64,000 nucleotides of DNA, from the IMG/VR virus record IMGVR_UViG_3300010355_001062, positions 11,321 to 75,320 of that record. One strand, written 5' to 3'. Below are positions 56,479 to 64,000 of the stretch, piece after piece. Both the position numbers and the translations under genes were made by a program. This DNA is from a virus. Its lineage: Duplodnaviria; Caudoviricetes. The notes under the pieces were generated by a model. The model made no database searches. It was not told where the DNA came from and saw only the letters and a program-made list of their open reading frames with translations. Numbering within the stretch: position 1 is the stretch's first letter; the number at the start of each line of letters is the position of its first letter.

Positions 56479-56685
56479 ATGGGAAATTTAAGGAATAAAT
56501 TGCAATTAACCTTAGCTCAAGTAGCAGCTCTCTGTGGAATGAAAATTTCAGCCCTACAAGCTCGTGAGAAAGGTTTCGAAGAGGGTAGCTTGAGCATTAA
56601 GAACGCCGAAGCAGTCATTGAGGCTTTGGGCTACCGAATGGAAATCTGGGCAGTGAAAGACGGAGAGCGGGAGCGGATTCGTTAA
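56479..56685 (+). CDS. XRE/Cro-family HTH regulator
   Basis: LRNKLQLTLAQVAALCGMKISALQAREKG...LSIKNAEAVIEALG. Confidence 0.8.
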   Translation: MGNLRNKLQLTLAQVAALCGMKISALQAREKGFEEGSLSIKNAEAVIEALGYRMEIWAVKDGERERIR

Positions 56686-57228: not shown

Positions 57229-57685
57229 TGCTTATGATTAATGGAATTCCGTAATGTTTGTGTAGTTCAAGGATTGTAGCATATTCCCCTGTGTATTCTC
57301 CCCAACCTTCGGGTACGATACCTTCGTGGATGTAAAACATCCTAGTATATAGCATTATTTTGCTACTTGTGATTATCGTCGCTATGAGCTTGTTTGGATG
57401 ATACTGCGCAGGTATATTTACGCTTAGGGCTTGTGCAAGACTGCACTGTATAGTAAATGGGATATGCGCAGAGTCCGGGTTGGTTAAGTGAGGGTATTGG
57501 GGATTGATTCCATATAATTTCCCATCGAAACGAATAAGGAGCTGGATTTGAGTAACTACTTTGGGGAAATCTCTGAATGAGCCTTTATAGTTACCATAGC
57601 TGGAATAGCTTGGGAATGGTAGCTCATGGTCATTGATATGTTCGTCGATATTTTCCATAGTGTGTAGCTTAACGATAGTATTCAT
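57197..57685 (-). CDS. hypothetical protein
   Basis: Coupled ORF. Confidence 0.6.
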   Translation of the reverse strand: MNTIVKLHTMENIDEHINDHELPFPSYSSYGNYKGSFRDFPKVVTQIQLLIRFDGKLYGINPQYPHLTNPDSAHIPFTIQCSLAQALSVNIPAQYHPNKLIATIITSSKIMLYTRMFYIHEGIVPEGWGEYTGEYATILELHKHYGIPLIISNADTFYTNNP

Positions 57686-58190
57686 TGAAATGTATCAAGA
57701 AATCTTCTTTAGCCTCTTCCGGTGTCAGTATTAAGCCTCTGATGTCTCTAGTAAGTAGCTTATGTTCATAGTCTGGGTTACGTAGTACTAGAGCTTCGTA
57801 TTCATGAACTAGTACTAAAGCATCGATCATCTTTACATGGTTTTCGACAGTGAAGCCGAATTTAGCTTCTATAGCCTCCTGCAAGCGAGCCTCTATTGCT
57901 TGATAATCGGGTAGTCTCTTCTTTATGGGACTAGGTATATCTAACAAATAAGCTTCACTCGCATCGTGTAGAAGTGCAGCTAACTGGTGTCCTTCTTGAG
58001 CCTGCCTGCAGCAAACTATTGAATGTTGAGCTACTGAATAAAAGTGTCTCAAATGACCCCCAAATCGGCATTGGTGGCTTAGCGCATGCGCGATGTCTTC
58101 GATGTCGATTAGTTCGGGGTCTGGTTCGAATACATTTATGTATTTGCCAGTGAAAGTACGAATGCAATCTTGGGTGTATAGATTCTCCAT
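57669..58190 (-). CDS. HD-domain phosphohydrolase (YfbR-like 5'-deoxynucleotidase)
   Basis: IAHALSHQCRFGGH...YSVAQHS...LLHDASEAY..DIPSPIK. Confidence 0.88.
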   Translation of the reverse strand: MENLYTQDCIRTFTGKYINVFEPDPELIDIEDIAHALSHQCRFGGHLRHFYSVAQHSIVCCRQAQEGHQLAALLHDASEAYLLDIPSPIKKRLPDYQAIEARLQEAIEAKFGFTVENHVKMIDALVLVHEYEALVLRNPDYEHKLLTRDIRGLILTPEEAKEDFLIHFNEYYR

Positions 58191-60366: not shown

Positions 60367-60747
60367 TTATATAGCCACATTCTTATACGGTAGTTTATCT
60401 CTGTCACTGCATTCCACAACTAATTTAGCAAAATGCTTATTAGTATAGTCAGTTATACGCATGATACTAGAACAAGCATATATCAAACCCGGTTCGAAAG
60501 TACGAAATAGCTGAAACGAGCAATAACCCTCAAGCATAGGTAAGTTAAGTTCTAATGGTTTAACATTCTCCCATTCGATCTTTTGTTCGAATAACTTCTC
60601 TGTCGTTTCTTTAAACCGTTTAGCTAGGTATACATCCTTTCGCATATCTACTAAACAAGGCCACAGGCTATCGGCGAATTCGAATAAACCTATTCTAGTA
60701 CCTGTGTCGTTGTAGATTAAACCTATAGCGTATGGTGTTGTTTTCAT
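60367..60747 (-). CDS. hypothetical protein
   Basis: Coupled to monooxygenase stop. Confidence 0.6.
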   Translation of the reverse strand: MKTTPYAIGLIYNDTGTRIGLFEFADSLWPCLVDMRKDVYLAKRFKETTEKLFEQKIEWENVKPLELNLPMLEGYCSFQLFRTFEPGLIYACSSIMRITDYTNKHFAKLVVECSDRDKLPYKNVAI

Positions 60748-62189
60748 AGTTTAATTAGTTTAGTATAACCATATTCCGATTTCGCCATAACGGTTACAAA
60801 ATATACCCCAGCTGATAAATCGGATATATCTATAGTCCGTGCAGCAGTTAAGCTCTTCACTACTCGCCCTGCTGTATCGTATATACATACTAAACCTTCT
60901 ATAGGTAAATTGAATCGATCCCTAGCAGGATTTGGATAGCCTACCAGCTTTAGCTTAGGCAACTCCGTACTACTAGTTTTAACCCCATTAGCTAAGTCAA
61001 GCAATTCGTCACCTAACTTATATTCAGTGAAGGTAAAGTACACTAACATCATTTCGTCCGAGCTACTAGCACCGTCACGAATATTACGATTGGTGTAGTT
61101 ATCGTATGTAGCTTCAGCTTGTAATACATCCCCAACATTAGCTATTAAAGGCGTAGGTAATTCATAACCCAATTGCCAATGGAAATTCCAGTTGTTGATC
61201 CTGATAATTCTAGTAGTATCTTTAGCAGTGTTAAGTTTCCACACTTTAACACTCTTGCCCACAGAATGCATGTGGGGCATGACCGAAATCATAGTTAACT
61301 TTTTAACTATACTCGATTCCGCACTAAAAATAGTAGTTTTATTAGCTGGTATAAACAAACCAGTAGCGAAATGGTTTAGCAATGGCTCCGTTTTCAGTTC
61401 GCGTAATTTGCTTGAGCTTAATCTAGCTAAGAAACTAGTTTGATCTTTTTGTCCCATTGAACCCGGTGCATAATGCACCTGTATAATTATTGTAGCTGCT
61501 TTTGCTAGAAATTGCCCCATACCCTTCGGGTAAATGGTAGGATCAGACCCAGGAACCCAAGCGCCTATTTGCTTTGCACTAGCTGAACCTACTCCCCAGT
61601 AGCTTGTGTAACCCAGCTCTTTATCTAAAGCATCTAGCTTATAGGGGATATTAGAAGTATCAGCATATACCAATATATGATGCACTATGTTTTTGTTTCC
61701 CGGAATACATTTGAAGCTAGTTATAAATTGATCTAATGATAATCCAGTAGGCAACGGGAAGCATCGATAGACATCGCCATTATTAGGCACTGTATATTCT
61801 GGTATAGCTATTTCTAAGTCATGGGGCCAGAATTCATTAGTATAGACTGGTGGTATAGGTGTATCTTGTGGCCTACCGTAGGGAGCTGAACTACGTACCC
61901 ATTCCTCTATTAAGTGAATTTCGTCGGCAGTCATCAAACGCTCATTCTGAAAGTGAGAGTAGCTTGGGTCAGCTGGCCAGGGCGGCATACGCAAATTCTT
62001 CGTAGAATAGGCTATACTATAGCGGTTAACGTATGTTTCTTCGTATGTTACCAGCGAGAATGGTGCTATGCCATTATCATTATGGCAGGAAGTACAGTGC
62101 CGATATAAGATAGGAGCAATGTCTAGCGTCCATACTGGAGTGTGGCACTGCGCTTGCAGTGCCACTAATAAGATAAATAGAGTTCTCAT
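60744..62189 (-). CDS. secreted heme c / copper type II (PHM-like) monooxygenase with T9SS C-terminal domain
   Basis: Hydrophobic leader; CTSCH and MPPW; VHHIL, QVHY, PHMH, DEMM; YPNP...IYDTAGR...IDISDLSAGVYFV...KLIK. Confidence 0.88.
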   Translation of the reverse strand: MRTLFILLVALQAQCHTPVWTLDIAPILYRHCTSCHNDNGIAPFSLVTYEETYVNRYSIAYSTKNLRMPPWPADPSYSHFQNERLMTADEIHLIEEWVRSSAPYGRPQDTPIPPVYTNEFWPHDLEIAIPEYTVPNNGDVYRCFPLPTGLSLDQFITSFKCIPGNKNIVHHILVYADTSNIPYKLDALDKELGYTSYWGVGSASAKQIGAWVPGSDPTIYPKGMGQFLAKAATIIIQVHYAPGSMGQKDQTSFLARLSSSKLRELKTEPLLNHFATGLFIPANKTTIFSAESSIVKKLTMISVMPHMHSVGKSVKVWKLNTAKDTTRIIRINNWNFHWQLGYELPTPLIANVGDVLQAEATYDNYTNRNIRDGASSSDEMMLVYFTFTEYKLGDELLDLANGVKTSSTELPKLKLVGYPNPARDRFNLPIEGLVCIYDTAGRVVKSLTAARTIDISDLSAGVYFVTVMAKSEYGYTKLIKL

Positions 62190-62665
62190 AGATATTGCTT
62201 AAACTCCTCTGGAATATCCAAAGCTTGCACTGTAAAGCGAAACCCTGGTGTAGTACGGGCTTTACCGGCTAAATCTTCCAGTAGCTCACGCGCCTCGGAG
62301 TCGTCACTAGTAGCGAATTTCTTATTCTCGCTAGTAGTTATGTACAAGTGCTTTTTAGTCGGTAGTTTCACTAGTTGCTGGAATTGTGGGTCATCTATAT
62401 TAACTTTGAGCACGTAATTCACTCCTTTGCCGGCCTCATCATAAAATAGCACGGAAATAGTGTTATCCGGTAACATACGCACATGACATGGTTGGGAGGC
62501 GTACTTCTGTGTTATCTCCAGCCATTGCTCATCTGTGAACGATCTGGTGAGATAGCGGCGTTTGGCGCCTTCGTGAGTAAAATAGCCTTGTTTACGCATT
62601 AGCTCGGGCTTATAGCCCTCTAGCCATGTGCGAAAATGCGAGAAAGTAGAATAAACAGCAGCCAT
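62186..62665 (-). CDS. hypothetical protein
   Basis: Coupled ORF. Confidence 0.65.
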   Translation of the reverse strand: MAAVYSTFSHFRTWLEGYKPELMRKQGYFTHEGAKRRYLTRSFTDEQWLEITQKYASQPCHVRMLPDNTISVLFYDEAGKGVNYVLKVNIDDPQFQQLVKLPTKKHLYITTSENKKFATSDDSEARELLEDLAGKARTTPGFRFTVQALDIPEEFKQYL

Positions 62666-63821: not shown

Positions 63822-64000
63822 CGATTTCGAATAACTTGAAAGCCTCCAGCGACGGGTCTCGGTGTAGTATTAGGTTATACTCAGCGCAACGTAATGTATT
63901 TTTAAGTTTTTGGATGTGAGTCTGCGTACGGCTATCATAGTGTATACGAGCATCTCCGATGGTACTATGAGCATACTTAGTTCTAGCCGTACCATTACAC
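63805..64000 (-). CDS. 3' end of a gene entering from outside the window
   Basis: 64 open codons from 63999 to TGA at 63805-63807. Confidence 0.5.
   Translation of the reverse strand, partial: CNGTARTKYAHSTIGDARIHYDSRTQTHIQKLKNTLRCAEYNLILHRDPSLEAFKLFEIGGREY

Follow-up and report, generated by a model that had tools for sequence, protein, structure and literature searches.

A minus-strand open reading frame (ORF) near the end of a 64,000-nt stretch of tailed-phage DNA (hereafter the window) was found to encode a 481-residue protein, designated P0001, in which a short leader, a putative cytochrome c domain, a two-copper monooxygenase core and a type A sorting domain as used by type IX secretion systems (T9SS) follow one another in a single chain (Table 1). 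The window comprises bases 11321-75320 of the 75,320-nt IMG/VR record IMGVR_UViG_3300010355_001062, rated 100% complete by CheckV, and also encodes a tape measure protein, a head maturation protease, a family A DNA polymerase and SbcC. The initial annotation of the locus, made from the letters alone, had described a leader, the heme-binding motif CTSCH with MPPW downstream, six copper ligands and a type A sorting domain. This four-part architecture was borne out by profile searches, by alignment with peptidylglycine alpha-hydroxylating monooxygenase (PHM) and by the fold predicted with AlphaFold2 (AF2), with the leader being read by eye. A sister copy, designated P0014, was found in a second phage.

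Table 1. Features of the P0001 gene and of the two adjoining ORFs, with positions in the window
Feature	Positions	Strand	Basis
Entire gene (481 codons and a TGA stop) for leader, cytochrome c domain, two-copper monooxygenase core and T9SS type A sorting domain	60744..62189	-	ORF call, Pfam/TIGR, PHM alignment, AF2, Foldseek
Residues 1-15, predicted Sec-type leader MRTLFILLVALQAQC; likely cleavage ALQA|Q	62145..62189	-	By-eye reading and homologue alignment
Residues 16-110, predicted PccH-like four-helix monoheme c-type cytochrome domain	61860..62144	-	Homologue profiles, domain alignment, domain-alone model, VIA
C32-T-S-C35-H36, heme attachment motif and proximal His ligand	62082..62096	-	Invariant in 89 + 61 homologues
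M68-P-P-W, predicted distal Met heme ligand	61977..61988	-	M invariant in 61 rows; P69/P70 invariant in 89 rows
Residues 126-241, CuH (electron-transfer copper) beta-sandwich with H170, H171, H239	61467..61814	-	Pfam, PHM alignment, 89-row alignment, Foldseek
Residues 245-392, CuM (oxygen-activating copper) beta-sandwich with H306, H308, M380	61014..61457	-	Pfam, PHM alignment, 89-row alignment, Foldseek
Residues 393-417, linker; predicted local distance difference test score (pLDDT) <50 at 403-408 (called disordered)	60939..61013	-	AF2 model
Residues 418-480, short 62-residue T9SS type A C-terminal sorting domain; motifs PNPA, YDTAGRVV, GVYFV...KLIKL	60750..60938	-	Pfam, TIGR04183, AF2, family profile
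Upstream phage ORFan, 159 aa; stop (TGA) overlapping the start of the gene (ATG) within an ATGA	62186..62665	-	ORF list
Downstream phage ORFan, 126 aa; start (ATG) overlapping the stop of the gene (TGA) within an ATGA	60367..60747	-	ORF list

P0001 was confirmed as a member of the copper type II monooxygenase superfamily (PHM/DBH-type, DBH being dopamine beta-hydroxylase) by both Pfam domains, both copper sites and the two-sandwich fold. Cu2_monooxygen (PF01082), a profile named in the initial annotation as a check, matched residues 126-241 with 34.7 bits compared to a Pfam gathering cut-off of 30, and Cu2_monoox_C (PF03712) matched residues 298-387 with 45.8 bits compared to a cut-off of 23. 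In a phmmer search of the PDB, rat PHM (1opm) matched P0001 with an E value of 2.6e-8, and the resulting alignment paired H170/H171 and H239 with the CuH ligands H107/H108 and H172 of PHM, and H306/H308 and M380 with the CuM ligands H242/H244 and M314, respectively. All six copper ligands that had been picked out by eye are therefore present, and they were invariant across 89 homologues. In the AF2 model (mean pLDDT 90.1), the N-terminal domain was helical and was followed by two beta-sandwiches and a C-terminal sandwich of seven strands. Its best PDB match in Foldseek was PHM 3mll (E 1.7e-15, target TM score 0.68, root-mean-square deviation (rmsd) 3.6 over 270 columns), and human DBH 4zel was also among the matches. 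The CuM domain contains the family motif W334-x-F-H-W-Q339 and the site of a phage-specific 9-residue deletion, located after residue 367.

The carboxylate and backbone of peptidylglycine are bound in PHM by Arg240, Asn316 and Tyr318. In the phmmer alignment, Arg240 was replaced by Met304 in P0001 (Ala in the family consensus) and Asn316 by Leu382, while Tyr318 was the only one of the three to be kept, as Tyr384. The protein is therefore neither PHM proper (EC 1.14.17.3) nor a PHM orthologue, since two of the three peptidylglycine-binding residues are absent, and the same replacements make the amidation of glycine-extended peptides by P0001 unlikely. With PHM (1PHM/1OPM/3MLL) and DBH (4ZEL) P0001 shares the two beta-sandwiches, the three His at CuH and the His-His-Met set at CuM. 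In contrast, the identity is approximately 20%, P0001 is bacterial/phage-borne and T9SS-tagged, and a cytochrome c domain is fused to it where PHM uses soluble ascorbate. PHM and DBH were listed among the eukaryote-only cuproproteins in a 2020 review (PMC7435645), and no paper on a bacterial or phage PHM-type enzyme was found in the literature.

The heme-binding motif CTSCH and the downstream MPPW, both picked out in the initial annotation, proved to be strongly conserved. C32, C35, H36, P69 and P70 were invariant in the 89-homologue alignment, and M68 was at least 90% conserved in those rows and invariant in a 61-row alignment of the N-terminal domain alone. When this domain was folded on its own, the pLDDT was 86. 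In a VIA search of 48,161 chains, only PccH (Z 7.4; rmsd 2.2 over 75 residues), FoxE (Z 6.3) and the YhjA heme domain (Z 5.4) were matched with Z of at least 5; all three are monoheme c-type cytochromes and the next row had a Z of 3.2, but a Z below 8 is not proof by the tool's own note. At the level of the family, 11 of 12 homologues matched Cytochrome_CBB3 (best E 2.5e-5) and 10 of 12 matched Haem_bd (best E 7.3e-5), in both cases below threshold. Based on the VIA matches together with the invariant CxxCH and Met-Pro-Pro, it was considered very likely that P0001 contains a His/Met monoheme cytochrome c domain with a predicted heme.

A related arrangement is found in the X183 c-type cytochrome domain of Cellvibrio japonicus (CjX183, Cbp2D), which reduces secreted copper lytic polysaccharide monooxygenases (LPMOs) (PMC8981238). 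In the X183 domains of C. japonicus Cbp2D and Teredinibacter turnerae (PMC8981238, PMC10916295), as proposed for P0001, a small secreted monoheme cytochrome donates electrons to an extracellular mononuclear-copper oxygenase. The cytochrome and the LPMO, which has a histidine brace, are however separate proteins with unrelated folds, whereas P0001 combines its cytochrome and a PHM-type core, to which electrons would be passed, in a single chain. The fused domain suggests a donor other than ascorbate.

The T9SS sorting domain was found at the extreme C-terminus of P0001. Por_Secre_tail (PF18962) matched residues 418-479 with 41.9 bits (cut-off 27), and NCBIfam TIGR04183, the second profile check named at the outset, matched residues 418-480 of 481 with 41.2 bits (cut-off 23). 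In the AF2 model seven strands form a well-folded sandwich at residues 412-480, and the family profile matched the solved T9SS sorting domains 8glk_D (E 7.8e-5), 8qb1_A and 8glj_D. No other T9SS sorting domain was found in the phage. The predicted leader (MRTLFILLVALQA|Q) was read by eye as MR, a 9-residue hydrophobic core and ALQA|Q; it is short, 13-15 residues, and aligns with homologue leaders ending in ...A|Q(T/S)P.W, with Gln at +1 in most homologues. This Gln fits the pyroglutamate habit of Bacteroidota. A lipoprotein reading of Cys15 was rejected on inspection of the sequence because Q-A-Q-C is not a lipobox, and P0001 is thus not a lipoprotein. SprA was detected in the nearest cellular lineages with 2344 and 2204 bits, and the nearest cellular genomes encode CcsBA-like proteins (Cytochrom_C_asm) of approximately 965 residues. 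Together with the single sorting domain of the phage, these matches support the claim that the product would depend on host machinery for heme attachment and type IX secretion. With a domain well above the curated cut-offs, export of P0001 through the T9SS is quite probable, as judged from sequence.

P0001 belongs to a family of proteins of approximately 520 residues with the same four-part architecture, of which 483 were found in a word-indexed search. A scan of species genomes returned at least 590 matching stretches, in agreement with the initial claim that similar architectures occur in Bacteroidota chromosomes: the best 80 of them were from Saprospiraceae, Lewinellaceae, Chitinophagales, Flavobacteriales and Sphingobacteriales, except for one record labelled 'bacterium' and one Bifidobacterium-labelled metagenome-assembled genome. 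The latter ('uncultured Bifidobacterium sp.', CAZZKP010000003.1) holds a typical Bacteroidota T9SS-tagged family member and is probably mis-binned. Members are annotated as 'T9SS type A sorting domain-containing protein' or 'mono/diheme cytochrome c family protein', and in the two cellular loci inspected the neighbouring genes were unlike each other. The nearest named member was the 519-residue protein P0002 of Haliscomenobacter hydrossis (51% identity), which has the same four parts over its full length and shares all ligands with P0001. Compared to P0002, P0001 is approximately 40 residues shorter, lacks the loop NPxNPNxPP before the CuM Met and has a shortened sorting domain. Compared to the cellular family, it is changed at 15 of 111 conserved columns (e.g. 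SFGG to SYWG) and shows phage-type codon use.

In a maximum-likelihood tree of 89 proteins (87 cellular and the two phage copies), P0001 was placed inside a 9-row clade with H. hydrossis with an SH-aLRT support of 99. The comparison with host homologues proposed initially thus nests P0001 among Haliscomenobacter-like Bacteroidota, as sister to P0014. These sequence relationships are best explained by an ancient uptake of the gene from a member of the Saprospiria (Bacteroidota) resembling Haliscomenobacter. More distant homologues, with 26-29% identity, were found on six high-GC metagenome contigs (L119, L122, L127, L133, L134 and L140). They have a lipoprotein-type leader (e.g. ...LLSAC), CxxCH and the copper core, end just past the CuM Met motif without a sorting domain, and in some cases are fused into proteins of 750-1260 residues. 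The cytochrome-copper core is therefore a unit that is also found beyond Bacteroidota. The closest cellular-type relative of the N-terminal 60% of P0001 (59% identity; L146:692-2190) is split into overlapping ORFs of 310 and 201 residues, by a frameshift or a sequencing error, on a short contig near Rhodanese and PASTA genes.

The sister copy P0014 is 412 residues long and was joined to P0001 with an SH-aLRT of 100. It is located on JGI contigs of 62-68 kb (L005:4631-6836; L012) and in the 77.5-kb record IMGVR_UViG_3300020049_008034, which is rated 48% complete. The phage that carries it is larger and unrelated, with its own terminase, virion proteins, helicase, Cpn60, Amidase_3, Glucosaminidase and dNMP kinase; apart from the gene itself, the two phages share one clear ORF of function not known and three weak ORF matches (E 1e-5 to 1e-8). 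The two proteins are 53-55% identical, and both keep an intact frame, the nine metal/heme ligands and all 36 family-invariant columns. A 9-residue loop just before the CuM Met (consensus NPNNPNNPP), present in all 87 cellular proteins, was absent in both phage proteins. Moreover, both lack a 5-residue stretch of the sorting domain, a deletion that was found in none of the 87 cellular rows, and both have SYWG in place of SFGG. The P0014 branch was long (1.07), so that long-branch attraction is a concern for the pairing, but the shared deletions and SYWG support the pairing independently of the tree. It follows from these shared changes that the gene moved into phages a single time, passed between unrelated phages and has since diverged to its present level of identity. 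Three IMG/VR scans for further phage copies returned the second phage only, and a metagenome scan with the phage-pair alignment returned only cellular-type relatives with at most 39% identity.

The P0001 gene lies 1.8 kb from the end of both the window and the record. At its start the record has nine adapter-like bases (CTTCCGATC), after which 126 nt of its own end are repeated (record positions 1-135; window positions 63875-64000), and this terminal repeat indicates that the genome is circular or circularly permuted despite the IMG/VR label 'linear'. An identical gene was found on eight contigs from ENA, JGI and Logan assemblies. In a 75,240-nt ENA contig it is located in the middle of the contig, 10 kb downstream of the terminase, and three other assemblies, ENA and JGI among them, cross the record-end junction at 100% identity. 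All assemblies were 100% identical in nucleotide sequence over 13 kb; because they may share raw reads, this represents agreement between assemblers and not independent samples.

The composition of the gene was that of the phage. Its relative synonymous codon usage correlated at 0.82 with the other genes of the phage (their own mean being 0.68) compared to -0.06 with the Haliscomenobacter homologue, and the GC content at third codon positions was 0.35 in the gene, 0.38 in the phage and 0.54 in the cellular homologue. Tetranucleotide use in the gene correlated at 0.83 with that of the remaining window and at 0.07 with that of the cellular locus. AGCT was over-represented approximately 4.2-fold in the gene and 3.5-fold in the window (813 observed in positions 1-64000 compared to 235 expected from base composition), compared to 0.33- to 0.76-fold in Haliscomenobacter genes or loci. 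An excess of this palindrome runs against the usual tendency to avoid restriction sites. The AGCT richness and the coupled junctions that had been noticed initially, with ATGA overlaps on both sides of the gene, were thus confirmed, and the statement that the DNA is not a host contig fragment was upheld by the closure of the contig on itself, by the assemblies that cross its end and by its phage-like composition. The identity of P0001 and its residence in a phage are regarded as practically certain. No tyrosine or serine recombinase (integrase, resolvase) was found in the phage, and lysogenic (prophage) conversion by it is therefore unsupported.

The interpretation that is somewhat favored is that P0001 is encoded by a genuine accessory gene of an approximately 75-kb tailed phage, which was kept and remodelled in phages, and that the whole chain acts as an exported heme-copper oxygenase. 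The phage is probably that of an uncultured Bacteroidota host. The leader would carry P0001 through Sec. In the periplasm, as the invariant ligands and the fold suggest, a host CcsBA-type system would link heme to C32/C35, H36 and M68 serving as its axial ligands, and copper would fill the CuH and CuM sites. The folded holoprotein, guided by its C-terminal sorting domain, would then leave through the host T9SS and end up on the cell surface or in the medium. There, the fused cytochrome may stand in for ascorbate as the one-electron donor to CuH, and CuM would activate O2 and hydroxylate a C-H bond of a substrate that is presumably not a glycine-extended peptide and most probably belongs to the host envelope or to the matrix around the cell. 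A change in the infected cell's surface or surroundings, e.g. in its receptors or by loosening of the matrix, might benefit the phage. Since the product would be on or outside the infected cell, surface or matrix remodelling is the best guess for a benefit, but it is weakly held and remains speculative. The benefits put forward in the initial annotation (receptor alteration, translocon jamming, copper scavenging and modification of peptide signals) are without sequence support.

Several findings weigh against this interpretation. P0001 itself had no Pfam cytochrome match, and a Foldseek search with the N-terminal domain alone was not significant, with no row below an E of 2, though many c-type cytochromes, TtX183A among them, were present in its weak rows. 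A PDB profile search gave weak cytochrome matches only (E of at least 0.14). The cytochrome assignment therefore consists of motif invariance, sub-threshold homologue matches and VIA Z scores of 5.4-7.4. A source of electrons for the cytochrome outside the cell is not evident. No conserved neighbour pointing to a substrate was found in 80 cellular loci, where any one neighbour was shared by at most 8 of the 80. The host was not identified when 20 kb of phage DNA was compared with 301 genomes of the candidate order in a search for prophages and spacers, which returned the homologous gene and short chance matches only; a 26-nt exact match (in L150) was outside any repeat array. Of the 111 columns with at least 90% conservation among cellular members, P0001 deviated at 13.5% and P0014 at 31%, compared to a cellular maximum of 8.1%, which could reflect relaxed selection rather than a new specificity. 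In addition, the sorting domain of P0014 was sub-threshold (12.7-14.8 bits) and its leader is doubtful, with eight residues after the called ATG; an in-frame ATG located 81 codons upstream would make the hydrophobic stretch a signal anchor. The P0014 gene lies directly downstream of a LAGLIDADG-like gene, and an adjacent group I intron was considered as a way to rescue the leader, but no Rfam match was found. The sub-threshold sorting domain of P0014 means that T9SS export is possibly not essential to the phage-borne subfamily.

These last points also favor the main rival explanation, that the enzyme does its work within the infected cell's periplasm and that its sorting domain is a relic that could be dispensed with. 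Electrons would come from host periplasmic respiratory carriers, and the enzyme would oxidize a periplasmic or envelope-precursor substrate, or just consume O2 and electrons, before or instead of export. In addition to the remnant sorting domain and doubtful leader of P0014, the sorting domains are shortened in both phage copies, and an electron supply is easier to picture in the periplasm than outside. The distant high-GC lipoprotein-type homologues, which have CxxCH and the copper core, lack a sorting domain, so that the core works without the T9SS elsewhere. In contrast, the sorting domain of P0001 scored far above both curated cut-offs and keeps PNP, DxxG and GxY...K, its strand sandwich is well folded in the AF2 model, the family profile matches solved sorting domains, and a cellular homologue, P0037, has the same short form of the domain. 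Action in the periplasm was considered unlikely.

It is less likely still that the gene is a passenger, i.e. a host gene that is carried along without a role for the phage and is now drifting. The greater divergence of the phage proteins at family-conserved positions than of any cellular member, P0014 especially, the long branch of P0014 and the position of the gene within a block of small ORFans would be consistent with drift. However, both copies are intact and keep the nine ligands and all 36 invariant columns at 53-55% identity, codon and oligonucleotide use are fully phage-adapted, the gene is translationally coupled to both neighbours, and it occurs in two phages with almost nothing else in common. 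An assembly chimera or host contamination, which the position so close to the contig end might suggest, is very improbable. The record end overlaps its start by 126 nt, the junction is crossed without a mismatch in three other assemblies, one of them with the gene mid-contig, the composition signature is that of the phage, and different assemblers agree, though reads may be shared.

If P0001 is indeed an exported heme-copper oxygenase, the remodelling seen in both phage copies could go further. In a rather speculative extension, which was thought unlikely as a whole, the two proteins would form a phage-specific subfamily in which loss of the loop reshaped the CuM pocket for a new host-surface substrate. 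The phage would then carry out oxidative envelope or matrix chemistry by means of host heme maturation and the T9SS, e.g. a receptor would be destroyed or masked, or a floc or sheath loosened for release. In that case the parent family would also be the first PHM/DBH-type enzymes from bacteria, in which a built-in cytochrome takes the place of ascorbate.

It had been stated in the initial annotation that no characterized phage T9SS substrate is known. This holds in so far as none has been characterized experimentally, but phage-encoded T9SS cargo is already known from one literature report, in which three genes of 'Cryophage' were described as carrying type A sorting domains (Bellas et al. 2020, Nat Commun, PMC7468147). 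As in the present case, Cryophage is an uncultured Bacteroidota phage whose sorting-domain genes are presumed to use the host T9SS, and both cases are known from genes alone. Cryophage has an endoglucanase, a GH39 hydrolase and a PA14 protein as passengers, whereas that of P0001 is a predicted heme and two-copper redox enzyme which would also need host cytochrome c maturation. The literature searched yielded no report of phage cargo consisting of a PHM/DBH-type copper enzyme or a c-type cytochrome. The heme-copper redox passenger appears to be new for phages: tblastn against 50,697 GenBank phage records (INPHARED) gave no match to P0001, no PHROGs family covered the gene or any of its five neighbours, and BFVD contained no convincing PHM-like viral model (best query TM score 0.31).

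Phage auxiliary genes tied to copper-dependent oxygenation also include the phage-borne pmoC and amoC, which encode subunits of membrane copper monooxygenases. In contrast to P0001, their products are integral-membrane subunits that supplement host energy metabolism, and fold, location and probably purpose are unrelated. If it is made and exported as predicted, P0001 would be the first phage redox metalloenzyme for which a joint dependence on host Sec, cytochrome c maturation and T9SS had been shown, and the phage would be performing oxygen-dependent chemistry outside the infected cell. It would also be a compact 481-residue member, with its donor fused, of a very large unstudied bacterial PHM/DBH branch, whose biochemistry it makes directly testable. 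For phage ecology, it would add a new class of passenger to the T9SS cargo of Bacteroidota phages.

The neighbouring phage ORFs had no Pfam match. Elsewhere in the long minus-strand array, the only plus-strand gene nearby, divergent from the array, encodes a 68-residue HTH_3 (Cro/CI-type) protein (window positions 56479-56685). At positions 57669-58190 on the minus strand, 2.5 kb downstream of the P0001 gene, a 173-residue HD-type deoxyribonucleoside 5'-monophosphate phosphatase was found (phrog_318, E 4e-59), which is probably part of the nucleotide/DNA-modification metabolism of the phage.

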